Shown: one piece after another, positions 1 to 22,885 of the stretch
How the letters are laid out: each line of letters opens with the position of its first letter
Position numbering within the stretch: the first letter of the stretch is position 1
Sequence record: MT446405.1
Strand: one strand, 5' to 3'
DNA: 64,000 nucleotides
Source of the DNA: Escherichia virus TH32
Notes under the pieces: model-generated
Databases searched by the model: none
The model's input: only the letters and a program-made list of their open reading frames with translations
What the model was told of the DNA's origin: nothing
Program-made: the position numbers and the translations under genes

Positions 1-236
1 AGGCATATCTCATGAATGGTCTGGGTGGCACTTCTACCCTGACTGGCCCTTGCCCAAAGTTCAAAACGGCTATGTGACCAAATTCATTAAGTCGCGCGAC
101 TTCTGACACCAACATTCCTTCCCCACCAGTTTCTGAAGGGTATCTGGTAGAATCAAACCATCCTGCTTCAACAGTAAGACCCTTCATCGATTGAAGCGCC
201 TTTATCTGTTTTTCTATCATTTTTGATTTTGTCATA

Positions 237-818
237 TCACACCGGAATATCGCCTAAATCGTTATTAACAGCTCTTGCAACAGCAGGCGTGTCAATTGAA
301 ATTGCGTTTCTGTGAAGGATTACCAAATCAAAAGAAGGAAACGATTCAAACTGAGACATGTCGTCATAGAACTTTTCATTGTTGTTCATGTCGACTCTAT
401 ATACTGAAGCTTGATGCCTTTTAAACCAATCCCTCAAATTAGCCTTGTGGGTTATGAATCTTGCTAAATAAGTCAAAACGTCATTAGCCGTAGGCTTTTC
501 TGGATTGCCAGGAACTTCTGGAAATAAGCCGCTAATTTGAAAACGTGTTGCGTATATCTGATCTTCAATATCTTTAAATTTGCCATTAACGAATTGAGAT
601 TCATCATTGACAAATTCATTCTTTCTCATTGACCAACCGAATGGGACTGAGAATAAAAGGTTAAACCAAATCTGATCACCAGTCGGAATGCCCTGTTGAG
701 TCGGTTGGTATTTTTTCTGGACCGGAACAGCAGAAAGGTCTGCACGACTATACGCCGCCAGACCTTCTTCAATTCGCGTTGCCAGCATGTCAATCAGGTC
801 GACATCTGTCATATACAC
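237..818 (-). CDS. hypothetical virion protein (connector/neck region)
   Basis: Uncontested 193 aa ORF at distal end of minus-strand head module; no recognisable motif; position-based. Confidence 0.3.
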   Translation of the reverse strand: MYMTDVDLIDMLATRIEEGLAAYSRADLSAVPVQKKYQPTQQGIPTGDQIWFNLLFSVPFGWSMRKNEFVNDESQFVNGKFKDIEDQIYATRFQISGLFPEVPGNPEKPTANDVLTYLARFITHKANLRDWFKRHQASVYRVDMNNNEKFYDDMSQFESFPSFDLVILHRNAISIDTPAVARAVNNDLGDIPV

Positions 819-819
819 C

Positions 820-1206
820 TCAAGTAGACACTGGAAAGCTTTGTTTTACTTCCACGGCAAGGCAAGACGTCCAACCATCTTGGTCAAACCATGTCGTTTC
901 ATCTTCCATCTTGTACGTTTTGCCACCAAACACAAAATAGTCGCCGGAAGCGTCGCGGTCAAGGTCAACAATGTCTTTGTCCACCCAGATTTTGACATAG
1001 TTCTTTTGAAGCTCTAAACCAAGCTCAACGTATTGGTTTCGAAGTACAGCCTGCACCGAAGCAAGTAAGGTGATTGGTTCTTCATATGTAGTGACATAGT
1101 TGCGCATCTTATCAAGGGTGCGCCCCTTGTACATGTAATATTGAATCGGTTGGCGACCGATAACCTTTGTCGCAACTCGATATAAGTTTACGCCAGGAAT
1201 CCTCAC
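820..1206 (-). CDS. hypothetical head-tail connector protein
   Basis: 128 aa ORF, start overlaps stop of upstream gene (coupled); position in head module. Confidence 0.3.
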   Translation of the reverse strand: MRIPGVNLYRVATKVIGRQPIQYYMYKGRTLDKMRNYVTTYEEPITLLASVQAVLRNQYVELGLELQKNYVKIWVDKDIVDLDRDASGDYFVFGGKTYKMEDETTWFDQDGWTSCLAVEVKQSFPVST

Positions 1207-1667
1207 CAGAATACCCCACCAATTTTACGGAATCCTTCACGCTCTGGAAGGCCGCCGAATGACAAGCCGCCAACGGCCAGTGCTTGAAGAAGCGCCCACA
1301 GCGCCATGCCATATGGAGTGCTTGATAGCCAGTATTCCCAGCCATCACTCGCAGGCGGCGCGACTTTGTTCACTGTGATGTCACCAATTGTTGCTCCAGT
1401 CACGAAGCCGCCTTGTTCAACTCCGTCACCAGAAGACACAGACACTTGTTGGTCTGCGGCTATGCATAAAAGATGAGCCGTCATATATTCCAATGCCAGC
1501 TCCAATTTACTGCCATTTAAAACACGACAAGGACTGTCTTGTGATTCAATAAATTCACATGCCATGTCATAGAATACTTGAAGTGTTGTGTCAGGGAATT
1601 TAACCTGATCAGCAAACTGTGGAAATTTAATTCTGAACTTTTCGTAATCTAATGACATGGCATTCAC
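1203..1667 (-). CDS. hypothetical head-tail connector protein
   Basis: 154 aa ORF tightly packed after capsid-side genes; no motif. Confidence 0.3.
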   Translation of the reverse strand: MNAMSLDYEKFRIKFPQFADQVKFPDTTLQVFYDMACEFIESQDSPCRVLNGSKLELALEYMTAHLLCIAADQQVSVSSGDGVEQGGFVTGATIGDITVNKVAPPASDGWEYWLSSTPYGMALWALLQALAVGGLSFGGLPEREGFRKIGGVFW

Positions 1668-1672
1668 CTTAT

Positions 1673-2137
1673 TTAAACGCGGAACAAATCATCTTCTTGG
1701 TCGCCGCTCAATTTTACCTTGATGCGCTTGTCAGCAGTTTCGCGCGTCATAGGCGCAAACGGGTCGTCTGACATGCTGCGAACTTCTTTAGCGACGGCTT
1801 TGTGGTTGCCAACAATGTCGTGATTTACGACTTTCACCAAACCTTTTTCAAGATGCTGCTTAAACACGTGATGATCTTTCAGATGCTCAAAATCTGCATC
1901 GCTTACAACGGTGACGATTCCTTCAGGAGTCCACAAAGGTGCACCGTCAGCGCCTTTTGCCATTTCACCAAAGCCGGAAGTTGCTGAAGTAAGACCAGCG
2001 CCGCCCTTGATTAGAATCTGTTTGCGAATATTTGGAAGAGCGCCTGAACCAGCTTTTGCATTCGGGTTTTCTTTCACTTCCGTATAGAAAGTGTAGTTAA
2101 CTGACATAGACATAGTTGAAACGATGTATTTTGACAT
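1673..2137 (-). CDS. hypothetical virion protein
   Basis: 154 aa ORF immediately downstream of putative capsid gene; antisense ORF 1802..1987 judged spurious. Confidence 0.3.
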   Translation of the reverse strand: MSKYIVSTMSMSVNYTFYTEVKENPNAKAGSGALPNIRKQILIKGGAGLTSATSGFGEMAKGADGAPLWTPEGIVTVVSDADFEHLKDHHVFKQHLEKGLVKVVNHDIVGNHKAVAKEVRSMSDDPFAPMTRETADKRIKVKLSGDQEDDLFRV

Positions 2138-2252
2138 TTTGTAGTCCTATTTATATAAGCCTCAGATAAGCCCCTACAGCCCTTGAGGTCTATTGATATG
2201 GGGCGAAGCCTTTCGACCACGCCCCATGTGTTTTACTGTGTAATCACAGCAA

Positions 2253-3392
2253 TTAAATACCAGTCATACGGACGACTGCGAACGGACGCTTGAGCAGAAC
2301 GCCTGCTGTTGCGTTTGCGTAGTCTTCAACGTAGCTCTTAGCACGCTTTTCAACGCCCAGAGTCATGAACTTGGTTTGAACCAGCTGACTGAATACGGAA
2401 CCATCATCGCTTGAACCATCGATTGAGGAATCGATGTGATCGGCGTACAGGTATGCCACGTTCAAGAAAGTCGGGTCACTGCCAAGTGCGCCGTTGAGTT
2501 CCGGTGCAGATTTGATCTTCATCTTCGGATAAGTCTGGGTGATCCAGTCACGTACAGAAATACCGAAGTCAGTGGTGTTGGACAGCCAATCGATAGAGTT
2601 AGTCGGCAGCGCCAGAGTCATGTCAACTTTCTCTGGATCAATCTGGTCCTGAGAGTTCACACGAATTTGACGAACCATCAAACGGATGTCTGCAGTTACC
2701 TGTTGGAAAGTCGCAGTAGCCCAGCCGGAAGTGGTGTTGGAAGTCATCGCCGCTGGCAGGTTTGGATCATTCAGGAAGCCGAATGTGCGGTTGTTCCCGT
2801 TGTACCAGCCATAGAAGCCGATTGCGTTACGCATGATTTCCAGAGATACAGCAGCCTGCTGGCGCTTGGTTTCTGCGGAGTTCAGACGCATCGCAGACGC
2901 GCGGCCTTCTTCCAGCATACCAACTGCCATGCCCATTTCGCCACGAACGATAGAACGACGTTCAAAGTTTACGTTCCAGCTTGCCAGAGGAATAGAGGTG
3001 AAATCACCATATTCGACTGCGGTGCCAGCTGGTTCAACGATGCCCTGAACGATTTCTGCATCTTCCCACTGACCAACGGTATCAATACCAACCAGCTCGT
3101 CGATTTTACGAGCAGCGGTCATGATTTTGACGAAGCCAGGCAACCACTGCTGCAGGAACTGCAACGGGGTCGGGATTGACGGAGTGGTCTGCGGCGCAGT
3201 AAACGCGGCATCACCTACGCGGAAAGCGCCTGCACGGTTTAAGTGCTCAATCTGATCACGCACAATCGCGGAATCAAACACAATACCGATACGAGCAAGC
3301 TGGGAAACAGCCGCGTCGGTGACGGATTGCATATCAAAAGGTCGCACCTTGCTCGCTGGGAGGCGAGAGTGTGTTTGGCTAATGCGAGTCAT
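2253..3392 (-). CDS. major capsid protein (putative)
   Basis: 379 aa, size and position (terL-portal-morphogenesis-scaffold-X-capsid order); no motif verified. Confidence 0.5.
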
Positions 3393-3406
3393 TATTCACC
3401 TGCCTA

Positions 3407-4024
3407 TTAACGAGTCAATTGTACAATGGTATAAGTGGAAGACTGGACGCTTGGGCCGGAAAGGGCAATAGCAGTCGGGTCAATCACGATACCGCCTGGA
3501 ATGGCAACCATGCCAGTTGGCAGTGAGCCAGTATAGGCGATAATTGCACCGATAGGCAAGTTGTTCGGGTTGTTACCGCTGGAAATGCCTTTAGGTACAT
3601 AAGCGAGCAGGTCGCCGTAGTTCAGCGTCTGCGGACTGGTGCTTGGGTTGAATACTTCAACTACGAGGCCCGTGCACATATCGTAGAACTCGCCTTCGCT
3701 ATATTGAGGCAGAACCATGCTGGCACCCAAAGGACCAGTAGAGTTGCCATACAGAGCGTAACGCTTGCTGTTGCCAAGGATGCCATAGTAATTGGTGCCG
3801 CCCAGTTCAACTTCAAAGTCCTGCGCGCCCAAGGTTTTGGTCTGGCCAGTACCCATTAATGACACATCAGCCTTAAAACCAAACACACGGCTGATGGCGT
3901 TTACGTTTGCACCGTCGTTGGCGCTAACGATTCGGCCTGGCTTCCCACGCTGTGGGCCGTCGCGAACGATGTCGCCAGGAAAGCCAGTTGTATATTGACG
4001 GCCTACACTAGTTTGGAAAGTCAT
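3407..4024 (-). CDS. Gly/Ser-rich capsid-associated protein (possible decoration protein)
   Basis: Start moved to Met at 4024 preceded by AAGGGGA RBS; lies between scaffold and capsid genes. Confidence 0.3.
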   Translation of the reverse strand: MTFQTSVGRQYTTGFPGDIVRDGPQRGKPGRIVSANDGANVNAISRVFGFKADVSLMGTGQTKTLGAQDFEVELGGTNYYGILGNSKRYALYGNSTGPLGASMVLPQYSEGEFYDMCTGLVVEVFNPSTSPQTLNYGDLLAYVPKGISSGNNPNNLPIGAIIAYTGSLPTGMVAIPGGIVIDPTAIALSGPSVQSSTYTIVQLTR

Positions 4025-4026
4025 GT

Positions 4027-5448
4027 TTATTCCCCTTTCAACCAAGCTTCAAATGCTTCGTCAGTTGCTGCAGAATCCGCAGCGGCCTTTTGTTTTGCGA
4101 CTACACGCTGTTTTTGACCGTGCTCAACGCCGCGCAGATAATTATCCACCACGTCAAACTCAGCCCCATCAACGCACTTCAAGCCTAACTTTTTAGCGCC
4201 ATATTTCGCTACGGACTTGGAGTCCATAGTTGCATGATCAAAGGCACCAACAACTTTAGACAGGCGCTGGTAGAGGCTATTCTTACGAGCAGAATCAGCG
4301 TAGAAAGCAGCAACTGCTGAATCAGATGCCATTGAGTGTTCCCCTTTTGCTGGACCTGGCGACGCTTTCGCCGCTTTTGTCGGTTTGTCATCTTTTTCGA
4401 CCGAAGCCCCCTTTACGTTGCTGTTTTGCAGGCCGCTAACCACATCTTCAGCTTTGTCGCAAGGTGATACATCTTCAGCCTTGACTTCAACTTCTTCTTC
4501 GTCTTTGACTTCGGCTTCAACTTCTTCTTCATCACCTACCGCGCCACCTTTCAGTTTTGCAATAAGTGCTTCGATTTGGCTGATCAATTGCGGAAGTTCG
4601 CCGCCAGCGTGAGATTCAGCTTCAACTTCAAACTTCTCTTCACCTTCTGGGGTTTCTTCTGCTTCTGCCTTGACTTCTGGATCAACCATTACTTCTTCAC
4701 GATTTTCGGTTGAGTCCTTCTCTTCTGCTTTCACTTCAACTTCATCCTGATGAGCAGCTTCAGTACTCTCTTCGTTCAGAAATTGTTCGAGCGCAGGAAT
4801 CAGTGATTTCAGCTGTTCAACAGCATTATCACGCGCTTTACCTTTTAACGGTTTTGGCATGTCTAAATCCTCGTTGGATGGTGTTACAGTCGTCAAACAA
4901 AGATGGTCAAAGCAACGACCATCCAGCACCCGTGCACCTGGTACTCGACCAACGTCCACGAGAGCAATGTGGTTGCCGCGAAGAGTTGTCTGCACCACTT
5001 CATACGGCTGCCCGTCAAACTCTCCAGACTGTATGATGAATTCACAGTCATAGCCCAAAGACAAGTCAACCTTTCCAGAATCAATGGCCTTCTTAAGACG
5101 ACGGCTGAACACTTTAAGGTCGCCGCGCATCCATGGCTTGTCATAATAAACATTGCCAGTCAGAACGCCATCAACTCCATACTCTTCGGGTGCTGTGTTA
5201 TCCTCATCACCTTCAAATCCAGAAAGCATTTCGTGATTGTCGATGAAAGGGATATTTTTGAATGAATCTATCGCTTCGGGGTCTTTCACCGCTGACTCAG
5301 GGCGATAGACTTTTACGATGCGATTCGGATCACCATCAAGACCAACTTGACCAGCAGAATAATCAAAAATGCCAAATGACGAAATTGGACAACCCATAAT
5401 CGTCAAGAATCCATTTTTGTCAATTTCGCGTGCCGTTTGCATTCGCAT
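4027..5448 (-). CDS. scaffolding protein (possibly fused to prohead protease-like N-domain)
   Basis: 473 aa with long acidic Glu/Val/Ala/Lys-rich central stretch (EEEVEAEVKDEEEVEVKAED...), GAGGGTGG RBS; position between portal and capsid genes. Confidence 0.45.
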   Translation of the reverse strand: MRMQTAREIDKNGFLTIMGCPISSFGIFDYSAGQVGLDGDPNRIVKVYRPESAVKDPEAIDSFKNIPFIDNHEMLSGFEGDEDNTAPEEYGVDGVLTGNVYYDKPWMRGDLKVFSRRLKKAIDSGKVDLSLGYDCEFIIQSGEFDGQPYEVVQTTLRGNHIALVDVGRVPGARVLDGRCFDHLCLTTVTPSNEDLDMPKPLKGKARDNAVEQLKSLIPALEQFLNEESTEAAHQDEVEVKAEEKDSTENREEVMVDPEVKAEAEETPEGEEKFEVEAESHAGGELPQLISQIEALIAKLKGGAVGDEEEVEAEVKDEEEVEVKAEDVSPCDKAEDVVSGLQNSNVKGASVEKDDKPTKAAKASPGPAKGEHSMASDSAVAAFYADSARKNSLYQRLSKVVGAFDHATMDSKSVAKYGAKKLGLKCVDGAEFDVVDNYLRGVEHGQKQRVVAKQKAAADSAATDEAFEAWLKGE

Positions 5449-5830: not shown

Positions 5831-6011
5831 TATAAAACTCGCAGCAATCCTTTGCCGATGAATTCAGTGAATATTAAATAGCACTCCTGCCACTAAAACG
5901 CCAATCAACATCGAGTCATAAACAGCCCATTTCCAAGAAAGCAAAGAGTTGCAATTAATATTTCGCACTTTAACATAACGTGACTGAATAATCTTTTGCA
6001 TAACTTCCTCT

Positions 6012-6932
6012 TTAGTTCAGCTTAATTGCGGTGATCTGTCCGTAAACGGTAGATGTCAACGCGTCGGTGCACTGATAGTTTAAATACACATTACCAGGCG
6101 CGGCAAGAGTAATTACTTTTGTTGGGATGTTGCCGCCGAAGCGACCTGCAGCCCGAATGCCAGCTGACATGGCAAATGCATCATCCGTAATATCTGAATT
6201 GCTTGTTGACAATTTGACTGTAATTCCGGTATTCGCTTGAACGCCTGCTGTCGCGACAGTCAACTGACTTGCTGTTACAAGCCATTTCCCTGCAGGAAGG
6301 TTTAAGGTTGCCAGATTGACCAAAGTTGTTGGAGGATTGCTGACGCTATTAGTGGCATTCTGGACGGTACTTGCTGCTGCATTAAGCACACCAGACCCAT
6401 CAATTGATAGAGTTGTACCGACCTTTACGCCGCCTAAAGTAGATGCTGAGGCAATCGGCAATGAGTATTGGGTGACGCTGATTGTACCATCACCTGCTAC
6501 GCTTATTCCGGTGCCTATTTTGACGCCACCAAGAACGGAAGCTGTTGCCGCTGGTAACGTGTATTGGTTGCCGCTGGTTTTCACAACTTTGACTGCGACA
6601 GCGTTTTTCGACCCTCCAGACTCCATACCTATGATCACTGCTTCACCAAAAGCAATGGTGATTGTTGATGCAGTCAAGCCAGTTTGAACGTCTGTGATGT
6701 TCATCTTAGGCACAGACAATGTCAGGTTAGGCTTGCTGGTCGAATCGCCATCATTGCCAATCATAAAGAATTGACCTACTGAGTTATACCCTGATGCAAG
6801 CGGCGGGCTCAGTGGAACAATCAAGTTTTTATCAGAAGTGAATTCTGAGACAATTGCCAAGCCATTAGCATACACCGCAGGCAAGACTGGAGTTTGTCCA
6901 GATAGAGGGAATGTGTTGATTGGTATCGTCAT
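6012..6932 (-). CDS. fibre-like repeat protein (head fibre/decoration or receptor-binding candidate)
   Basis: Internal duplicated motif ASVLGGVKIGTGISVAGDGTISV / ASTLGGVKVGTTLSIDGSGVLNA typical of phage fibre repeats; start set to Met at 6932 with GAGGT RBS. Confidence 0.4.
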   Translation of the reverse strand: MTIPINTFPLSGQTPVLPAVYANGLAIVSEFTSDKNLIVPLSPPLASGYNSVGQFFMIGNDGDSTSKPNLTLSVPKMNITDVQTGLTASTITIAFGEAVIIGMESGGSKNAVAVKVVKTSGNQYTLPAATASVLGGVKIGTGISVAGDGTISVTQYSLPIASASTLGGVKVGTTLSIDGSGVLNAAASTVQNATNSVSNPPTTLVNLATLNLPAGKWLVTASQLTVATAGVQANTGITVKLSTSNSDITDDAFAMSAGIRAAGRFGGNIPTKVITLAAPGNVYLNYQCTDALTSTVYGQITAIKLN

Positions 6933-6939
6933 AATGACC

Positions 6940-7791
6940 TCAGATAATTGGTATTTTTCTGCACTTGCAGTGTATTGCCCATCCAGGAGGACCGATGTCA
7001 CCCTTTTTGAACTTAAGTTCTCCACCTACTTCCCATAAGCGTTTGTCATCAAGCTTGAATCTCATGCCGTCGACGTGCTCATGTGATATTCGCGGCTCTT
7101 TGCCTGCTCCTGAATGCGCCCACTCAAATTCCTCAACGCCATTCTGTCGCATCCTTTCATCACTTAATACGCAATAAAGTTTGCTCGTTTGGTCTTTGGC
7201 GATAAGGTCTACGCGTTTTGCAGAGAATTGTTTTACATTCCTTAGTGCCGCCTGAATGCCGGATGTGCCTTGCTGCGCTGGGTCTGGCGAAGTCAGCGAA
7301 AGCATCACCGCTTCGTACACCCTGTTGTGAATATCCTCGCCAACCTTAGTCACTAGAGTCGTGTTGAACGTCTCGCTTGTTTTAAGAGTGTTCTCAACGA
7401 ATTTATTATATGTGGCTTTTGGCGCTTCTATTCCTGCAGATTTAAGACTTGCGAATGTAGCAGAAGTCGCACCCTTTTCAACTGACTTGATGAAATCTGC
7501 GGCAATCTTTGACCCAACACGGGCGAATGCTTTTGCCCATTTCAGTTGAAGGCGCTTCATCAAGGTCTGAAAAGTTGAATCAGCAGAGTCTTGCGCAAAG
7601 AACTTTTTCACCTGCTTCTTTTCAAGCCACTCAGCAATGCCTGCCTGATAGTCATCAATCATCGCATAGCAAAGACCTTTCATCTCACGACGATAGGCCA
7701 TCGCAATAGCGTTGGATGGGATTATCGGACTGCCGCGCCCGATTCTATCGGGTGAGCGGCGTTCGCGTTTTTTCGAAGCTTTAAAAGCCAT
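6940..7791 (-). CDS. head morphogenesis / minor head protein (putative)
   Basis: Basic N-terminus, position directly downstream of portal gene; start chosen at Met abutting portal stop. Confidence 0.35.
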   Translation of the reverse strand: MAFKASKKRERRSPDRIGRGSPIIPSNAIAMAYRREMKGLCYAMIDDYQAGIAEWLEKKQVKKFFAQDSADSTFQTLMKRLQLKWAKAFARVGSKIAADFIKSVEKGATSATFASLKSAGIEAPKATYNKFVENTLKTSETFNTTLVTKVGEDIHNRVYEAVMLSLTSPDPAQQGTSGIQAALRNVKQFSAKRVDLIAKDQTSKLYCVLSDERMRQNGVEEFEWAHSGAGKEPRISHEHVDGMRFKLDDKRLWEVGGELKFKKGDIGPPGWAIHCKCRKIPII

Positions 7792-17288: not shown

Positions 17289-17537
17289 ATGAATCAAAAT
17301 GAATCAGTAGCATTCTTACAATGGCTGGAAGGTGTGGTGGAGTATTACGCTCCAAAAGACCGTTTCATCTTTCAAGGCAAAAGCTTCAAGCGCAAAGGTC
17401 AAGCACAGAAAGCAGCGCGTAAGTACTGGAAGGAAGTTTATTCAGAGTTCTTTCAGCAGATGGGCATTATCGGTGCGACCGTATCCGGCGACCCAGCACA
17501 GTTGGTATCGATTGATGAATCCAATCGTTACAATTAA
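17289..17537 (+). CDS. hypothetical protein
   Basis: 82 aa ORF. Confidence 0.4.
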   Translation: MNQNESVAFLQWLEGVVEYYAPKDRFIFQGKSFKRKGQAQKAARKYWKEVYSEFFQQMGIIGATVSGDPAQLVSIDESNRYN

Positions 17538-17552
17538 TAAACCGATTTGAAT

Positions 17553-17575
17553 GCCGCGCCATGCGGCTTTATTAT
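17553..17575 (+). terminator. terminator-like hairpin
   Basis: GCCGC-gccat-GCGGC followed by TTTATTAT. Confidence 0.4.
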
Positions 17576-17612
17576 AGTTATTGTTAATCACCCAAATATT
17601 AAAGGTAATGAT

Positions 17613-17993
17613 ATGTCAAATAAAAATGATTCTATGAGTCACACATATACTAAAGGCAGCGGCATTGCTTTTGGTTCCAGCATCAAAATTGACGCTCCAC
17701 CTTGCTATTCTGATGGATTGGAAGTTGGCAACCGTGACTTGACATGGGTTTTACGTCGCCAATCCGATTTAGAAGAGAAGTTGGAAAATATTGAGCGTTC
17801 TCTCGAAAGTTTGCGCGACCAGCTTTTTGGTTGTTCTGAAGATGATTCTAAATCTCCAGAGTATTGCGTTAATCATGGTTTGATTGATAATATGCTCGCC
17901 ACAACCGCTCGATCAATTGGTAAAACTGTGTCCATTGAGTCGTTGATCAGCCAGATTGCTGATGGATTTGGTGATGCCCATAAGAGTGAATAG
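17613..17993 (+). CDS. hypothetical protein
   Basis: Internal Met with AAAGG RBS. Confidence 0.4.
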   Translation: MSNKNDSMSHTYTKGSGIAFGSSIKIDAPPCYSDGLEVGNRDLTWVLRRQSDLEEKLENIERSLESLRDQLFGCSEDDSKSPEYCVNHGLIDNMLATTARSIGKTVSIESLISQIADGFGDAHKSE

Positions 17994-18023
17994 TGGGTGG
18001 ATGTTGCTTTAACCGTGAATCGT

Positions 18024-18050
18024 GGGTCGCTGTGGCGGCCCTTTCTTTTG
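18024..18050 (+). terminator. rho-independent terminator
   Basis: GGGTCGC-tgtg-GCGGCCC followed by TTTCTTTTG. Confidence 0.55.
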
Positions 18051-18054
18051 CCTG

Positions 18055-18640
18055 CCGCGCAGGAGTGTACTGCAAATTTCCTGTGGGTACAAAATAGTAC
18101 GGTACTGTCCAGGACTTTTTCTTTGAAAAGTTAGTGGACCAAATGTGTAGTATTTTGATTAGTGTACCGCAAATTCCATCAAGTACCAAAACGCACCAAA
18201 AGACCCATGCCATAAAAACCACACGAACGCAATAATCAATCGACGTTACAGTTTCCAGCGTTACAATTCGAAAGCGAATGATTCGACGCATAATAATATG
18301 AAGCATAATGATTCGAAAGCAAATGATTGCGTGTAGGATAATATCGGTGGGGATTATTCTAGATGCATGTAATTTCGCATGCGTACTATTTTCGGACGAA
18401 GGGTCGGCATATTCCTCGTTTTAGTTCGGAACGAAGGGAAAGTTTTGCGCCTTTATAAAACAACGACTTACGCGACCCGCCCTAACGGTCCGATATAGGT
18501 GTCTATATAAAACAAGGACTTACGCGATGTTCTCCATTTAACGTAATACCTGTTATGCGAACTAAGACGCATCTCGAAGAAGATTATGCGACGACGAAGG
18601 GAAGGATAAAGGAGTTTTCGCGTAGGAGCGCATCGAGATA
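18055..18640. repeat. repeat-rich non-coding region
   Basis: Approx. 600 bp without credible ORF; repeat families GTAC(T/C)GCAAATT(T)CC, AATGATTCGAAAGC, CGAAGGGA and TATAAAACAA(C/G)GACTTACGCGA. Confidence 0.6.
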
Positions 18641-18645
18641 GGGAC

Positions 18646-18671
18646 GAAGAAAAGCCGCGACTAAGCGCGGC
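18646..18671 (-). terminator. rho-independent terminator (minus strand)
   Basis: Minus-strand GCCGCG-cttagt-CGCGGC followed by UUUUCUUC, 20 nt after stop of 18692..18982. Confidence 0.55.
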
Positions 18672-18691
18672 CTATTAGTAACGGAAGGGTA

Positions 18692-18982
18692 TTATAAGGA
18701 GACGATTTTAAAATAAGTTACTTCGCCGCCGAGTTGCGGTACAGCGATATATTCGCCGCCGATTTCGGTAATCGTATAAACGAAGCCGTTAATCGTTACG
18801 CGATAGGATACGATGTCCTCGTCGCGATACTTGTAAAGGTCGAGGAAGTTGATCGGCTCATAAATAGACTCGATAATCGCGTCTACGTTAGAGAGATAAA
18901 CGCTCTCTAAGGTTTCGCCAAATACGTTAGAGTTTTCGGAAGTTTCGACGCGAGCGGAACGGATAGCGGCTAAAGTAATCAT
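18692..18982 (-). CDS. small acidic protein, paralog family A/C
   Basis: 96 aa, AGGAGA RBS; paralogous to 19617..19901. Confidence 0.6.
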   Translation of the reverse strand: MITLAAIRSARVETSENSNVFGETLESVYLSNVDAIIESIYEPINFLDLYKYRDEDIVSYRVTINGFVYTITEIGGEYIAVPQLGGEVTYFKIVSL

Positions 18983-19049
18983 AATAATCTCCTAGTTGGT
19001 CGGGCGGGTAGCGACCTATTCGCTACCTCATCCCCTCTCGATATAAAAC

Positions 19050-19078
19050 ATTATAGTCTTAGTGTACGAAGAAGTAAA
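19050..19078 (-). promoter_or_regulatory. sigma70-like promoter
   Basis: Minus strand TTTACT-N17-TATAAT. Confidence 0.5.
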
Positions 19079-19090
19079 GCACTTTTTTCG

Positions 19091-19393
19091 TTATTTTGCG
19101 ATAAAATATTTATAAGCTTTATCGCCTTCTACGTCGATATACTCGACGATAATTAATGCTTCGCCGCGAGGCGTAACCGTCTCGATAAGGGTAACGGCTT
19201 CGTCGTCGGTCTTCGCGAAGCGGATGGCGCTACGTTCGGCGTATTTAATTTCGTCGAAGGAAAGGCCGACGAAGGCGACGGCGCGCGCTTTAATAATGCT
19301 CGTTTCGAGTTCCGCGTTAACGGCAGCGATAAGAGAGCGAACGGTTAAGCGGTCTTCGTCGTAAGTAAGGATGGAAGAGATTAAAGTAGTCAT
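19091..19393 (-). CDS. small protein, distant member of the same family
   Basis: Start at Met 19393 with GGGAGC RBS. Confidence 0.5.
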   Translation of the reverse strand: MTTLISSILTYDEDRLTVRSLIAAVNAELETSIIKARAVAFVGLSFDEIKYAERSAIRFAKTDDEAVTLIETVTPRGEALIIVEYIDVEGDKAYKYFIAK

Positions 19394-19449
19394 AATAAAG
19401 CTCCCGATGCTAGTAGAAGGAAGGGCCATCGCCCGTCTCGATATAAACA

Positions 19450-19477
19450 AGTATACGCGAGTGTACGAAGAAGTAAA
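19450..19477 (-). promoter_or_regulatory. sigma70-like promoter
   Basis: Minus strand TTTACT-N16-TATACT. Confidence 0.5.
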
Positions 19478-19520
19478 GAAAAAGATAAAATAATTTATCG
19501 CATTTTTATCGAAAAAGTGC

Positions 19521-19549
19521 TTTACTTTTTTCTACACTATATTATAATG
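19521..19549 (+). promoter_or_regulatory. sigma70-like promoter (divergent partner)
   Basis: TTTACT-N17-TATAAT. Confidence 0.5.
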
Positions 19550-19616
19550 TACTCATATCGGGACGGGATGAGTTAACGAATAGGTCGTTAACGCCTCTCC
19601 CAACTAGGAGTTTAAA

Positions 19617-19901
19617 ATGGCTATTCTTAACGTTTCTTCTATCCGTAACGCCATCGTCGAGAACTACGGCGTAAAACAAAAATTATCCGAAGTCTACGCC
19701 GCGAACGTAGACCAAACTATCGAAGAGGGTGGGGTAACGGTCGCCGAGGCTTTTAAACTTTACGCGGCGTTACCGGAATCGGACCGCGAAGCCTTCGAAG
19801 TAAACGTTAACGGATACTTCTTCGAAGCGGTCGAAATCGGTAATATTTTACTCGTTATGGGCGAAGAAGAATTTGAGACCTTCTCCCTCGTCGAAGCGTA
19901 A
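19617..19901 (+). CDS. small acidic protein, paralog family A/C
   Basis: 94 aa, TAGGAG RBS; shares motifs with 18692..18982. Confidence 0.6.
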   Translation: MAILNVSSIRNAIVENYGVKQKLSEVYAANVDQTIEEGGVTVAEAFKLYAALPESDREAFEVNVNGYFFEAVEIGNILLVMGEEEFETFSLVEA

Positions 19902-19981
19902 GAGAGGATTTTTAGAGCGTCGTGCGCGGCGCTTTAATAAAATTCTTTCGCGCCTAGCGCCCTAACAAATAGGAGTTTATT

Positions 19982-20608
19982 ATGGTTAGCTTAAATCGCT
20001 TTTCTACTAGCGGCGACGTTATCGCAACTAAGACCGCCGACCTCGTTGCATTTTACAATGCAAATTCCGGTTCGAAGCCGATTAAAAAGTTCGCTGACCG
20101 CCGGACCGCCGAGACTCGCGTAATCGCGCTAATCGAGTCCTTAAACGCGCTCGATGAGCCGTCCAACGAATCGCCCATCCCAGACGCGAAGCCGCGCGAG
20201 GAAGTGTCCAGCGATGTAAAAACGCACAAGGCGCGTGCGGTCGTTAAAAAGGCCGAGCCGACCCAGGAAGAACTCGACGCGATGAGCGATGAAGAGTATG
20301 AAGCCTTCGTTAAGAGCGGCTTAAACGATAGTGCAAATTGCGTAGTGCAAAATGGAACTCCTTCCCATCGCCGTTCGAATAGCGAAGGTATTGCAAAAAG
20401 TTGGGATAATAAGGAAGTGGCGCAAAAGCGTCTTACCCGTAACGGCGTTATGGTCGAGGGTGTAGGCGAGTTCAAATCGGTCCGCGTAGCATTCGCCGCG
20501 CTGGGCTTACCGGATAGCAAACACATTCGCTTCCGTATGAAGCTTAAGGAAGCTGGGCGCTTGAACTTCGAGTTCGGCAACAAGTCCTACACATTCCAGA
20601 TTATCTAA
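19982..20608 (+). CDS. hypothetical protein
   Basis: 208 aa, TAGGAG RBS; CpG-rich coding; contains two copies of the ATAGTGCAAAT motif in frame. Confidence 0.5.
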   Translation: MVSLNRFSTSGDVIATKTADLVAFYNANSGSKPIKKFADRRTAETRVIALIESLNALDEPSNESPIPDAKPREEVSSDVKTHKARAVVKKAEPTQEELDAMSDEEYEAFVKSGLNDSANCVVQNGTPSHRRSNSEGIAKSWDNKEVAQKRLTRNGVMVEGVGEFKSVRVAFAALGLPDSKHIRFRMKLKEAGRLNFEFGNKSYTFQII

Positions 20609-20615
20609 TCGAATG

Positions 20616-20640
20616 GCGGCCCTTCGGGGTCGCTTTTCAT
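20616..20640 (+). terminator. rho-independent terminator
   Basis: GCGGCCC-ttcg-GGGTCGC followed by TTTTCAT. Confidence 0.55.
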
Positions 20641-20983
20641 AGTGCAAATTGGTGGCTTATGAATACGCTTATTCTCATCGCTACGTTGTCCATCGGAAGT
20701 GGTCGCACCTTATCCCTTTACGACCATAGTGCAAATTGCGCTTACCCTACGCGCGTTGCGGCAATAGTTAATAGTGCAAATCGAATGCTATTCGAAACTT
20801 GTTGGCGGGTCGATAACGAGAAAGGGCGCATCGTCTTAGGTTATAGTGCGAATCTGCTGGTGGAGTCGTTCGATTGGACGGTTGAAGGTCGTAAATTGTT
20901 ACGTAAGGTGACTAAAAGATGACTTATAATAATACACTTTCTAACGCGTTTATGGTTGTAACCTTCCCCGTCGTATTACCGAT

Positions 20984-21023
20984 GGCCCTAGAAGTGGAGA
21001 AAATGTGTTCTAGGGCCGTTTTA
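20984..21023 (+). terminator. long hairpin, terminator-like
   Basis: 10 bp inverted repeat GGCCCTAGAA / TTCTAGGGCC with 14 nt loop followed by GTTTTA. Confidence 0.35.
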
Positions 21024-21036
21024 TAGTGCAAATTGG

Positions 21037-21509
21037 CTAGTGGCGGGAGAATTGCTCGCCTTCTTTGGCCGCCTCTCCGAAATCCTTGTAGAAATCGTCC
21101 ATGGAACGGCCCATTTTACTATTGCCGTTTTCATCAATCATCGTGATGCCGTAGATGATATTCAGTTCACGAATAGCATTAAGTTTGGCTGACGCCGCGA
21201 CTTCTGGATCACGCACAAGCTTGACCAAATTGTGAATTGCACCTTTTACGCTCCACAAATCCTTGAGTGGCATCTCTTCCATACGCTTTTTGAAGCGCAT
21301 TTTGTAGTATGGGTTGCGTTGCGCGCAAAGGATTCGCTGGCCAGTGTAGCTATCCGTTGCAACTTCCATTCCAAATACTAGTGCAAAAGCTGCGCGCATG
21401 TCATGGCCCTGAATAACAAGGTCAATGAACTCATCGAATAAAGCCTGATTGTGCTCTGCAAATCGCGGGTCTTCAAAGTCTTCAGGCATCGCTACATAAT
21501 CTTGACTCA
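21037..21509 (-). CDS. hypothetical protein
   Basis: Start at Met (MSQDY...) whose ATG lies inside an ATTTGCACTATG motif copy. Confidence 0.45.
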
Positions 21510-21738
21510 TAGTGCAAAATCCCATAGTGCAAATTAATAGTGTGAATTATACAATGGATGGACATTATATTCAAGTGCAGATTGATGTTCATTATGGCTA
21601 TAAACGTACACAAATCACAGTGCTGAATGGATAACGGACCGTGGTGCGTGGTGTACTGTTTGATACGTATAAAAGAAATCCATCCCTTTTGCCGCTTGTT
21701 ATGCAAATCAATGACTTAGCCGCTGCTGGCTGGTCGAA

Positions 21739-22011
21739 GCGTATCATGACGTATCATCCGTATTGCCGCAAGTCTTTGTTTTTACTTATATCTTACGGAT
21801 AATACGTTAAATATATAAATTAACATAAGTATGAGGATGTAGAAAAAAATTAATTTAAATGATTTTAAAATGGAGTTAATTAATTTTTCAAATTATATAT
21901 ATAACGATGCCCAGTTTTATCCGTATCATCCGTAAGATTAATGTACAAGCCAGGCGCGGCAAGGGCTGTACACTGATACGGATAAAAAACCATGACGTAT
22001 CATGACGTAAG
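21739..22011. repeat. iteron cluster flanking AT-rich core (copy 2)
   Basis: Same (C)GTATCATCCGTA-type repeats and AT-rich core (21800-21905) as at 5559-5830. Confidence 0.7.
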
Positions 22012-22270
22012 GGTGTACCAATTTGGAAAGGATGAATCCAGGAACGGCGCGGCCTGTAGCCATGATACGCTTAATTTTTAACCGTATTTTAGGCGTATCA
22101 AATGTGTTCAAACACCAAGTTTCACGACACTAAAATTTCAATCCATAGACAATTCCTAACAAACACCACGGACTAATAGATACGCCCTATAAAATATATT
22201 TCTAAATATTTCCGCACAATCAATAAATAAAACACAACCTCATAATCATTCCATCGCAAAACACGACCCA

Positions 22271-22298
22271 AACAACAAAAGGCCGCATAAAGCGACCC
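22271..22298 (-). terminator. rho-independent terminator (minus strand)
   Basis: Minus-strand GGGUCGC-uuuau-GCGGCC followed by UUUUGUUGUUU. Confidence 0.45.
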
Positions 22299-22348
22299 AT
22301 TGCACACATTCCATTCTTCAAAACACGTAAACAGTGTTCGTTTATTCA

Positions 22349-22885
22349 CTATATCTTAGGCATTAATCCCTTTTCAGTTCTCCTTTTTATTTCTTCTTTT
22401 ATCATTTTATTGGTGACTTTATAGCCAATCCTCTCCAATTCCAGCAGCACTTCGTTTTGGTATTTTTTTATCTTCACAATATCGACTGTATCCCTCCAAT
22501 AAGAAAATACCTTCTGAATTACTGCTTCATCCATTTTATATCTTGCTGTCGTCCTGTATTTCGATTTGAAGATATAATTGATTGCATCAGTCTTTAACCA
22601 TTCGCTTCTCAACTCAGGGTGATCATCCCAAAGAGCTATGGCAAACTCTTGCGGGCTTTTACATCTTTTTCTAAGCTCCTTTATGTAATCAGTTATGCTG
22701 GTTTTGTCACAAAAACGTTTGCGGCAAACTTTGCATTCTTCCTTGAGTAACCATTCAGCCTTATTACTTTGCGACGCTGATTCATTATCCCTTCTGTACC
22801 TGCCGCATATACTTATTCCTTCATTATCCAAGAAGTAATGCAAGTCTTTAGAATACTTAGCTTTACGCCAAAAGCCGCCCATCAA
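22349..22885 (-). CDS. Cys-rich hypothetical protein (zinc-finger-like)
   Basis: 178 aa with CGRY...CKVCRKRFC cysteine cluster. Confidence 0.4.
   Translation of the reverse strand: MMGGFWRKAKYSKDLHYFLDNEGISICGRYRRDNESASQSNKAEWLLKEECKVCRKRFCDKTSITDYIKELRKRCKSPQEFAIALWDDHPELRSEWLKTDAINYIFKSKYRTTARYKMDEAVIQKVFSYWRDTVDIVKIKKYQNEVLLELERIGYKVTNKMIKEEIKRRTEKGLMPKI

Follow-up and report, generated by a model that had tools for sequence, protein, structure and literature searches.

Small acidic genes, a covarying leader RNA hairpin and a CA/TG-depleted island in the terminal repeat of Escherichia virus TH32

The sequence analysed here (the window; 64,000 nucleotides of Escherichia virus TH32, MT446405.1) belongs to a Wifcevirus, a 68-kb E. 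coli myovirus, and is 93–96 % identical to 28 Wifcevirus genomes. The locus of interest comprises two small acidic genes (A and B) on the minus strand and, divergently, a third (C) followed by a larger gene (D) on the plus strand, together with the following features (window coordinates, strand, description).

18199..21871, no strand: direct terminal repeat (DTR), from the PhageTerm annotation of phage Mansfield (DTR 1–3673) mapped onto the window
18244..18654, no strand: repeat-rich non-coding stretch from the A terminator to the DTR boundary (a 43-nt repeat twice, a 25-nt repeat twice, GACGAAGGG four times)
18400..20040 (~1.6 kb), no strand: CA/TG-depleted, CpG- and TpA-enriched island, with a weaker tail to ~20950
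18652..18673, minus: intrinsic terminator 3' of gene A (8-bp GC stem and T run; annotated in Mansfield and WFC)
18692..18982, minus: gene A, 96-aa acidic protein of the A/C family (open reading frame; orthologs only in Wifcevirus-size contigs; model pLDDT 71)
19007..19027, minus: type-1 leader RNA hairpin of the A transcript, GGUAGCGA-AUAGG-UCGCUACC (folding, covariation count, covariance-model match of 39.8 bits)
19050..19078, minus: promoter PA (TTTACT-17-TATAAT)
19091..19393, minus: gene B, 100-aa acidic protein of a separate family (open reading frame, orthologs; homologs in the related loci L034 and L036, E 3e-7)
19420..19437, minus: hairpin in the B leader (GAcGGGC-GAUG-GCCCuUC), weaker than the type-1 hairpins and unlike them in sequence type
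19450..19477, minus: promoter PB (TTTACT-16-TATACT)
19521..19548, plus: promoter PC (TTTACT-16-TATAAT), back to back with PB
19572..19592, plus: type-1 leader RNA hairpin of the C/D transcript, GUUAACGA-AUAGG-UCGUUAAC (folding, covariation count, covariance model)
19617..19901, plus: gene C, 94-aa acidic paralog of A (open reading frame), in a variable cassette slot
19902..19981, plus: C–D spacer, with the ribosome-binding/start box repeated at its end as ATAGGAGTTTATTATGG (compare CTAGGAGTTTAAAATGG before C), as read from the sequence
19982..20608, plus: gene D, 208-aa basic protein with conservation reaching as far as Pbunavirus (phrog_4730, E 4e-89)
20615..20638, plus: terminator-like hairpin and T run after D, read from the sequence (a terminator is annotated there in WFC)

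The divergent acidic paralogs, the duplicated promoter and the covarying leader hairpin named in the original prediction are all present, lie within 1 nt of the positions given for them and are beyond chance. The DTR location, the cassette behaviour and the CA/TG-purged island had not been part of it. The DTR is approximately 3.7 kb long in the window and 3784 bp in the WFC record, which holds both copies, and its boundary near 18120–18200 corresponds to one physical end of the virion DNA. In WFC, the right genome end lies 535 bp past the gene A terminator. Its position inside the DTR places one copy of the locus at a distance of approximately 200–550 bp from an end of the virion genome.

The promoters PA, PB and PC each consist of a TTTACT -35 element, a spacer of 16–17 nt and a TATAAT or TATACT -10 element, and A/T-rich DNA lies upstream of each promoter. 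PA and PB share the 19-nt core CTTTACTTCTTCGTACACT letter for letter, and PC departs from it at two positions; all three matches to this core in the 64 kb (0.1 expected) are found at this locus. The GCTTTACTT...TATAAT core also recurs amid diverged surroundings in distant relatives, namely L034, L036, Myosmarvirus and Kylevirus, while a scan of metagenomes with the promoter pattern returned 23 loci, six of them Wifcevirus-like; the remainder were discarded as AT-rich chance matches. The annotation of one complete relative lists neither a phage RNA polymerase nor a sigma factor, and all three promoters would be used by the sigma-70 RNA polymerase of the host. B would be transcribed from PB and then A from PA, outward to the terminator, while PC would serve C and D, inward to the terminator; in the PC unit, hairpins follow both C and D. 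The promoters are presumably strong, and their position and sigma-70 consensus suggest that they act early.

The gene C slot varies between related genomes, being occupied by C in the window, by an unrelated gene, C', in WFC, and by nothing in ECML-117 and RCIP0319, and in each case it is bordered by an identical leader and an identical 3' flank. The promoter, leader and ribosome-binding site may thus form a portable cassette behind which small ORFan genes are swapped by recombination. A comparable arrangement has been described in T4-type phages, whose variable regions contain ORFan genes flanked by PeSL (promoter-early stem-loop) cassettes. These are repeated composite units of approximately 100 bp in which a stem-loop and a ribosome-binding site accompany a strong sigma-70-like promoter preceded by AT-rich DNA, and closely related genomes differ by ORF insertion, deletion or replacement between them (PMC2839356, PMC4122927). 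[quoted passage not shown] However, the PeSL stem-loop lies upstream of or over the promoter and terminates transcription, whereas the hairpin described here is part of the transcript, lacks a U tract and carries a cap conserved in sequence; moreover, the locus belongs to another phage family and has only three copies, all in the terminal repeat. Gene D, downstream of the slot, was found in 355 phage records; its only match is phrog_4730 (function unknown), and a profile search of D against PDB sequences and Pfam gave nothing. A Serratia paralog of D has been labelled 'Gam-like' by one submitter, a label for which no support was found here.

The paralogy of A and C was borne out by BLASTP alignment, although the two are distant (27 % identity over 81 aa, E 1e-5; 34 % over 89 aa, E 5e-8, for the WFC allele of A). 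The proposal that B is a more remote relative of the same family did not hold, as BLASTP found nothing and hhalign gave a probability of 0.2 % (P 0.56–0.88); in a low-confidence model of B (pLDDT 55), only a C-terminal four-strand pattern resembles A/C. Distant homologs of A are P0040 (E 2e-11) and P0044, which has the same synteny, and judged from these comparisons the A/C-family proteins are real and conserved. All three proteins are acidic (pI 4.2, 4.7 and 4.05 and net charge -8, -5 and -12 for A, B and C, respectively), and relatives in other genera reach a net charge of -21. None of them has a match in Pfam, PHROG, NCBIfam or PDB, a fold match, or a match to a protein of known function. 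A Foldseek search yielded a 94-aa protein of phage Kyle that, judging by its length, appears to be the island protein KYLE_6. Profile–profile tests of B against A/C and among the other small acidic families gave no significant result, the best pair being A/C and the C'/Kyle_6/MyoSmar_003 family (P 0.007, global mode). Giant Big_13 and cadherin repeat proteins returned by an exhaustive profile search were judged spurious, reflecting summed beta-hairpin repeats. The products of the locus are small acidic proteins of fast-evolving families, which most likely act as inhibitors of host proteins in host takeover or anti-defence.

The 5' leaders of A and C are homologous, as had been proposed. Transcripts from PA and PC would start with AUAUCG(A/G)GA and enter a stem-loop at about +17 from the predicted start, with an 8-bp stem and an AUAGG loop; the two stems differ at two pairs, and both differences are compensatory. 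The hairpin is identical in approximately 30 Wifcevirus genomes with variable flanks, and the same cap is carried by a third stem, UCGGGCGA/UCGCCCGG, in the four Serratia Myosmarvirus phages examined. The 11-nt CGA-AUAGG-UCG cap shows no change across the two genera and the two paralogous leaders, unlike the outer stem and the flanks. Natural wobble variants (G.U in ECML-117 and RCIP0319, U.G in ManiWeber) pair on the sense RNA strand only. The covariation set comprised no more than five distinct sequences, drawn from the two genera and including paralogs; in it, 40 of the 40 cells were paired and five of the eight pairs had changed on both sides, a result matched by none of 500 shuffles, and pairing fell to 17–52 % in slid controls. 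The leaders fold stably, with modest z-scores for single leaders (-1.3 to -3.0), and the covariance model matches these leaders only, in 228 kb of related genomes. The cross-genus covariation and the G.U and U.G intermediates considerably strengthen the earlier claim of a functional RNA structure, and the pattern of pairing indicates that the hairpin functions as RNA. Not every version of the module carries it: the AUAGG hairpin is absent from L034 and L036 and from the plus-strand leaders of Kyle, some of these leaders having no hairpin at all. In positions 17500–22500, Rfam gave chance-level matches only (E >= 1.2). A role as an intrinsic terminator or attenuator was rejected, since no U run follows the hairpin (about +17 to +37), the next nucleotides being CCCGCCCGACC or CGCCUCUCCC, and since a terminator scan did not report it; a CsrA site was dropped by reasoning only, the loop offering GGU instead of GGA.

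The hairpin may be the recognition site of a conserved trans-acting factor, whose existence we infer, or at least a required structure, and would set the stability or translation of early mRNAs. The alternative that it is a generic 5'-proximal stabiliser, protecting the mRNA from RNase E/RppH 5'-end-dependent decay with no specific factor, is a serious one, if on balance unlikely. Most first-gene leaders with this promoter type carry a hairpin of unrelated sequence 4–11 nt past the predicted start, and those in the B leaders of the window and Mansfield and in the L034, L036, Kyle_6 and Kyle_7 leaders fit a purely structural role (the Mansfield and Kyle_7 variants retain a hairpin at the B-leader position); codon usage also suggests very high expression. 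Classical stabilisers of the ompA type have their hairpin approximately 0–4 nt from the 5' end and tolerate any loop. The leaders studied here share with them 5'-proximal hairpins, highly expressed messages and the occurrence of unrelated hairpins at the same place in several related leaders, but a plain stabiliser needs no conserved loop, whereas here the cap is kept while the outer stem and flanks change. In addition, the single-stranded 5' segment of the A and C leaders, predicted at 5–16 nt depending on outer pairing (about 16 before the inner 8-bp stem, counted from the predicted start) and at 3–7 nt in the other leaders, would exceed the tolerance of classical 5' stabilisers in the A and C leaders. 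Much less probable is a boxB- or put-like element that would equip RNA polymerase with an antitermination or pause factor on each of the two divergent early transcripts. The likeness to boxB of lambda nutL and nutR extends to a short hairpin with a lineage-variable stem and a conserved pentaloop that occurs in both leaders of a divergent early pair; a conserved UGAG precedes the hairpin. However, the loop is unrelated, no boxA-like CGCUCUUUA was found on reading the leaders (GGGAUGAG or AUUGAG precedes the hairpin), no N-like arginine-rich protein was recognised and Rfam gave no match; furthermore, the PA unit stops at a strong terminator adjoining the genome end, so that no genes beyond it need read-through. 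That the inverted repeat acts as a double-stranded DNA operator is highly improbable: its location at about +17 to +37 is one from which repressors can block elongation or promoter escape, but its arms covary with no single sequence kept, the conserved centre, AATAGGT, is asymmetric, and the two wobble variants, which on the opposite strand would give A.C mismatches, have no bearing on a DNA duplex.

The CA/TG-depleted island spans A, B and C, the three promoters and their leaders, the 5' end of D and the non-coding DNA past the A terminator. Within it, TG and CA together number 6–14 per 300 nt, versus 36–53 outside; the symmetrised observed/expected ratio is 0.45 for CA/TG (1.17 outside) and 1.96 for CpG (1.09 outside). 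The depletion amounts to approximately five- to ten-fold and CpG is doubled. The homologous modules found in Myosmarvirus, in Kylevirus and in two uncultured relatives show both features, and no island surrounds the D homologs in Pbunavirus, Xanthomonas FoX7, Salmonella PCSE1 and Aeromonas Gekk3-15. Known restriction-site avoidance in phages concerns specific 4–8-bp sites, usually palindromes, and acts genome-wide. The island is similar in its local lack of recognition sites in DNA predicted to be exposed early, but here a single dinucleotide pair is purged from 1.6 kb and palindromes based on CG and TA are enriched. Site avoidance as the sole cause was therefore rejected as insufficient, also because a 1.6-kb target seldom holds any given 6–7-bp site anyway. 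The depletion of CA/TG and the doubling of CpG, conserved in at least three genera, have no description in the literature searched and are explained by no known mechanism. Selection acting on the DNA itself probably keeps the whole module almost devoid of CA/TG.

Published observations connect Wifcevirus with restriction, as these phages resist five of six tested systems (type I, type II and one type III), all but EcoP1_I, with no known protection (PMC11990801). The census of sites in the DTR fits this phenotype: the five resisted systems have no sites or one uncleavable site, and EcoP1_I, whose AGACC site is free of CA/TG, has seven, five of them in the island. For EcoCFT_II, the recognition sequence was taken to be CACAG on the basis of a count match. 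Missing sites for four of the five resisted systems are within chance for 3.7 kb.

Two further alternatives concern the origin of the compositional signature and the role of the proteins. The CA/TG depletion might be a by-product of foreign origin, codon optimisation or acidic amino-acid content, given that CpG necessarily arises wherever an NNC codon, of the kind preferred in highly expressed E. coli genes, precedes a codon starting with G (Asp, Glu, Gly, Val or Ala), and that Met, Trp, Cys, His and Gln are scarce in the proteins. We consider this improbable. Synonymous recoding that retains the proteins and uses genome-typical codons predicts 33–35 CA/TG per gene, whereas 7–8 are observed and the lowest of 2000 trials reached 19; codon use corresponds to E. 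coli high-expression codons combined with a ban on CA/TG, such that CTG, the best leucine codon in E. coli, is never used and the rare TTA makes up 41 % of leucine codons; moreover, all three codon phases and the non-coding parts of the island, including the DNA past the terminator, are depleted, and the signature persists, between normal flanks, in modules whose proteins are only 27–35 % identical, which inheritance from a foreign donor cannot explain. As regards the proteins, A, B and C could be DNA mimics of the Ocr/ArdA type that counteract restriction, a role suggested by their small size and acidity and by the charge of their relatives in other genera, by their probable location at the leading end, by the resistance of Wifcevirus to restriction and by the distribution of sites in the DTR. 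They share with Ocr and ArdA a predicted early expression at a genome end of a restriction-resistant phage, but not sequence, profile or fold, and resemble no solved structure; A and B are only moderately acidic, with a lower charge density, and the lack of sites, as noted, is mostly within chance. RecBCD, H-NS, RNA polymerase and abortive-infection systems are, among others, equally possible targets. We regard this assignment as doubtful.

Comparable pre-early modules are the first-step-transfer region of T5, the host-takeover module of SPO1 and the class I genes of T7 (promoters A1–A3, gene 0.3), the first T7 gene encoding an acidic anti-restriction protein. The locus shares with them small and mostly unknown proteins, strong host-polymerase promoters and a position in a terminal repeat or at a leading end (here the DTR, with predicted sigma-70 promoters). 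The T5 repeat is annotated as the first-entering DNA. The locus differs from these modules in the absence of sequence homology. In addition, the T5 repeat shows no purge, its CA/TG being normal and its CpG mildly raised (1.3–1.5 versus 0.5–0.9). We know of no equivalent of the conserved leader hairpin in the T5, SPO1 or T7 modules.

The location in the terminal repeat near a genome end, the sigma-70-type promoters, the exchangeable ORFs and the restriction phenotype favour, circumstantially, an early role directed against the host, and the locus is most likely an immediate-early host-takeover or anti-defence module. Very short latent periods have been reported for Wifcevirus phages (BASEL study, PMC11990801). 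The explanation as a whole, an immediate-early module in the DTR with a hairpin acting on RNA, portable cassettes, host-inhibitory products and selection against CA/TG at the DNA level, appears to us reasonably probable. More speculatively, the island could be purpose-built as the DNA that enters first. It would have to function naked before any protection is in place, which implies selection at the dinucleotide level by an agent that reads very short CA/TG motifs, either a broad set of host nucleases or restriction specificities or the phage's own degradation of host DNA; protection of the remaining genome would then fall to the acidic proteins, and through the hairpin a conserved factor would time or boost the first burst of expression. 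This possibility, which we regard as tentative, would explain resistance to the five systems without cleavable sites in the DTR and sensitivity to EcoP1_I.

Wifcevirus phages are now joining model collections, and the locus offers handles on their unexplained restriction resistance. Genes A, B, C, C' and D behind the three promoters constitute a candidate set of early effectors, while the leader hairpin is a compact, covariation-supported RNA motif common to E. coli and Serratia phages that is suited to a search for its binding partner. The CA/TG signature gives a simple, falsifiable prediction on restriction sensitivity and, if the purge marks first-entering DNA, may allow leading regions and early anti-defence genes to be recognised from sequence alone.

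The small acidic proteins A, B and C and the basic protein D are encoded at a locus (window 18300-20700) which, in nucleotide comparison, shares 93-96 % identity with 28 phage records. All are from Wifcevirus, a group of E. coli and Shigella myoviruses of ~68 kb. In phage Mansfield, the counterpart of the locus lies inside a direct terminal repeat of 3673 bp that PhageTerm predicts and that projects onto about 18199-21871 of the window. The WFC record contains both copies of a 3784-bp repeat, and its right physical end is found 535 bp past the gene A terminator; by this geometry, the locus adjoins a genome end in one of the two repeat copies. Since the fully annotated relative ManiWeber/Bas99 has no annotated RNA polymerase or sigma factor (nor an annotated DNA methyltransferase), host polymerase should serve early transcription in Wifcevirus. 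The features of the locus are as follows.

18244-18654, non-coding, gene A terminator to repeat boundary: direct repeats (43-nt, two copies; 25-nt CTWTATAAAACAASGACTTACGCGA, two copies; GACGAAGGG, four copies)
18692-18982, minus strand: gene A
19007-19027, minus strand: type-1 hairpin of the A leader (8-bp stem and AUAGG loop on folding)
19091-19393, minus strand: gene B
19572-19592, plus strand: type-1 hairpin of the C leader (8-bp stem and AUAGG loop on folding)
19617-19901, plus strand: gene C
19982-20608, plus strand: gene D (208 aa)

The arrangement suggests an immediate-early module that would be transcribed by host polymerase as an outward unit (promoter PB, B, promoter PA, A, terminator) and an inward unit (promoter PC, C, D, terminator). 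The near-identical promoter proposed for each gene was borne out: the 19-mer CTTTACTTCTTCGTACACT has three copies in 64 kb (0, 0 and 2 mismatches; 0.1 expected), all at the locus. In each promoter, TTTACT and a TATAAT or TATACT hexamer are separated by 16-17 nt. Two uncultured distant relatives, L034 and L036, to which P0040 and P0044 led as homologs of A, retain both the core of the promoter and the AUAUCG start.

The A and C leaders align end to end, as the original prediction held, and the compensatory stem changes it described are upheld. Each type of 21-nt hairpin is essentially unchanged in a comparison of ~30 Wifcevirus genomes and contigs, while the stretch between hairpin and ribosome site varies. 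One-sided variants occur in ECML-117 and RCIP0319 (GUUAGCGA/UCGUUAAC, a G.U pair) and in ManiWeber (GGUAGCGA/UCGCUGCC, a U.G pair), and such pairs are possible on the sense RNA strand only. A small acidic gene of the Serratia phages SMP, MyoSmar, MTx and WR01 (Myosmarvirus) has a leader in which the cap CGA-AUAGG-UCG recurs, there on a third and unrelated stem (UCGGGCGA/UCGCCCGG). Across the five distinct sequences, all 40 of 40 pair cells hold standard pairs and five of the eight pairs are changed on both sides, values matched by none of 500 shuffles; with the 3' arm shifted by 1-3 nt, pairing fell to 17-52 %. When 228 kb of related genomes was searched with a covariance model of the five sequences, only these leaders matched, and Rfam contained nothing similar. 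On the pattern of its sequence changes, the type-1 hairpin is judged to be an RNA element under selection.

The hairpin is judged to act as RNA, potentially as a specific recognition site governing how stable early messages are or how well they are translated. Readings as a terminator or as a DNA operator failed on direct tests, and a boxB-like role is weakened by the lack of a boxA and of anything for read-through on the PA side. A serious rival is a generic 5' stabiliser, because other leaders carry unrelated hairpins at the same place. The B leader has a weaker hairpin of its own type (GGGC-GAUG-GCCC in the window, GAGAGGC-GAUGG-GCCUCUU in Mansfield), GAAGGGG-AAAUGAA-CCUCUUC precedes Kyle_7 in Pantoea phage Kyle, and the L034 and L036 leaders have unrelated 5'-proximal hairpins or, in some cases, none. 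A looser version of the type-1 hairpin, CGG-AAUAGA-CCG, is found ahead of KYLE_6 (94 aa), which, judged by length, appears to be the Kyle protein matched by Foldseek to the A model. However, the cap is invariant across genera while the stem covaries, and a specific recognition site is therefore favoured over a generic stabiliser.

The second property of the locus is its composition. In an island at ~18400-20040, CA and TG are depleted about five-fold (6-14 per 300 nt vs 36-53 elsewhere); the symmetrised observed/expected (o/e) ratio for 18301-20950 is 0.45 vs 1.17, while that of CpG rises from 1.09 to 1.96 and that of TpA from 0.66 to 1.17. CAG/CTG occurs at 0.06 of its genome frequency, and of the eight CAC/GTG left, five lie within the three promoters. 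When the same proteins were recoded with genome-typical codons, 33-35 CA/TG were expected per gene (minimum of 19 in 2000 trials) and 7-8 are seen. The depletion hits all three codon phases and extends to non-coding parts, including DNA beyond the gene A terminator. Met, Trp, Cys, His and Gln, whose codons necessarily involve CA/TG, amount to 1-4 % of the residues in A, B and C vs 10.4 % elsewhere; CTG, TTG, GTG, TCA, ACA and CCA are never used, TTA accounts for 41 % of Leu, and codon choice is otherwise that of strongly expressed E. coli genes. Together, these observations point to selection acting on the dinucleotide itself. The depletion of sense-strand UG and CA is equal for the two transcription units, and it reaches untranscribed DNA, which points to a constraint at the DNA level. 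Homologous modules in other lineages, with flanks of normal composition, share the signature.

L034, 5740-7130: CA/TG o/e 0.10
L036, 1970-3320: CA/TG o/e 0.35
Serratia phage SMP (L042), 5900-7600: CA/TG o/e 0.04-0.46
MyoSmar, 301-2100 of a 3559-bp terminal repeat: CA/TG o/e 0.16-0.55
Pantoea phage Kyle (L044), 3601-5400: CA/TG o/e 0.14-0.60

With only 27-35 % identity between the proteins of these modules and those of the window, the signature must, on this comparison, have been kept by selection; inheritance from a donor would not account for it. No such island surrounds the D homologs of Pbunavirus, FoX7, a Salmonella phage and an Aeromonas phage. Unlike the island, the first-step-transfer repeat of T5 has normal CA/TG and only raised CpG (o/e mostly 1.1-1.5 vs 0.5-1.0 in the adjacent genome; L048, 1-30000), which may be a mild parallel.

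A and C are genuine but old paralogs by alignment, as proposed: 81 residues align at 27 % identity (E 1e-5), and with the WFC allele of A, 89 residues align with C at 34 % (E 5e-8). The more distant kinship proposed for B is unsupported, since no alignment of B with A or C was found and profile-profile comparison gave 0.2 % probability (P 0.56-0.88 for wider families). The sole common feature of the AlphaFold models of A (pLDDT 71) and B (pLDDT 55) is a C-terminal run of four strands. The acidic character of A, B and C stands (pI 4.2, 4.7 and 4.05). All their homologs in a 5.8-billion-protein collection came from Wifcevirus-sized contigs. Only two further homologs, both small, emerged when the profile search was made exhaustive; giant Ig-repeat proteins in its output were regarded as spurious. 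Family libraries, solved structures and fold libraries gave no functional lead. A, B and C are most plausibly inhibitors of host functions; DNA mimicry is a candidate identity that nothing in the analysis shows. D is conserved as far as Pbunavirus (355 records) and is no better characterised by family and profile searches. Myosmarvirus phages have two D paralogs (L042 7078-7581; L039 4605-5639, both from SMP), one being the first gene of a CA/TG-free island, ~350 bp from the repeat boundary, and the other lying in DNA of normal composition.

The C slot is variable, while promoter PC and its leader are identical across the variants compared. It holds C in window-type genomes; in WFC-type genomes it encodes C', an acidic protein of 104 aa unrelated to C, with an unchanged 3' flank; and in ECML-117-type genomes it is empty, the leader abutting D; two copies of a ribosome-site/start box (CTAGGAGTTTAAAATGG and ATAGGAGTTTATTATGG) border the slot. 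C' is related to Kyle_6 (E 0.003) and, via Kyle_6, to MyoSmar_003 (E 3e-5). The PeSL cassettes of T4-type phages follow the same pattern, although their stem-loop, unlike the hairpin here, is a terminator before or over the promoter (PMC2839356, PMC4122927). The gene A alleles of the window and WFC (L002 3391-3681) share their first 23 residues and are 64 % identical overall, which indicates, at the sequence level, mosaicism between Wifcevirus subgroups through intragenic recombination. Downstream of gene A, ECML-117-type genomes encode one further protein, basic, 69 aa long and containing an RRRR motif (L004 1899-2108; RefSeq label 'transcriptional regulator'), which has no counterpart in the window.

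The direct repeats beyond the gene A terminator are a possible packaging or terminus signal. ATAGTGCRAAT has nine copies on one strand, all within the terminal-repeat half of normal CA/TG content (20328-21547; seven exact; 3.2 expected per whole window), spanning a doubtful ORF 'E' (20659-20922) and a gene annotated elsewhere as small terminase (21037-21525); these look like iterons for a packaging or replication DNA-binding protein.

Wifcevirus isolates resist EcoKI, EcoCFT_I, EcoRI, EcoRV and EcoCFT_II without known protection and are very sensitive to EcoP1_I, although the two type III systems have similar site numbers (BASEL study, PMC11990801). The terminal repeat has no EcoKI, EcoAI-type, EcoRI or EcoRV site, and seven EcoP1I sites (AGACC) in both orientations (18201-21468), five of them in the island. 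Counts in ManiWeber (AGACC 89, GAATTC 38, GATATC 8) reproduce the published table, and CACAG occurs 92 times, the number tabulated for EcoCFT_II (PMC11990801); CACAG is probably the EcoCFT_II site, a count of 92 being shared by five of 512 pentamers. It occurs once in the terminal repeat and never in the island (5.3 expected). Site content in the repeat agrees with the published sensitivity to EcoP1_I alone and is consistent with a model whereby sites count only in first-exposed DNA; for four of the five systems resisted, site absence is compatible with chance over 3.7 kb.

Terminal-repeat early modules, repeated promoter cassettes and leader hairpins are of kinds already known. No precedent for the dinucleotide-purged island was found in the literature searched on the subject. 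What is new is this island, together with the type-1 RNA motif, which has covariation support and is common to E. coli and Serratia phages.
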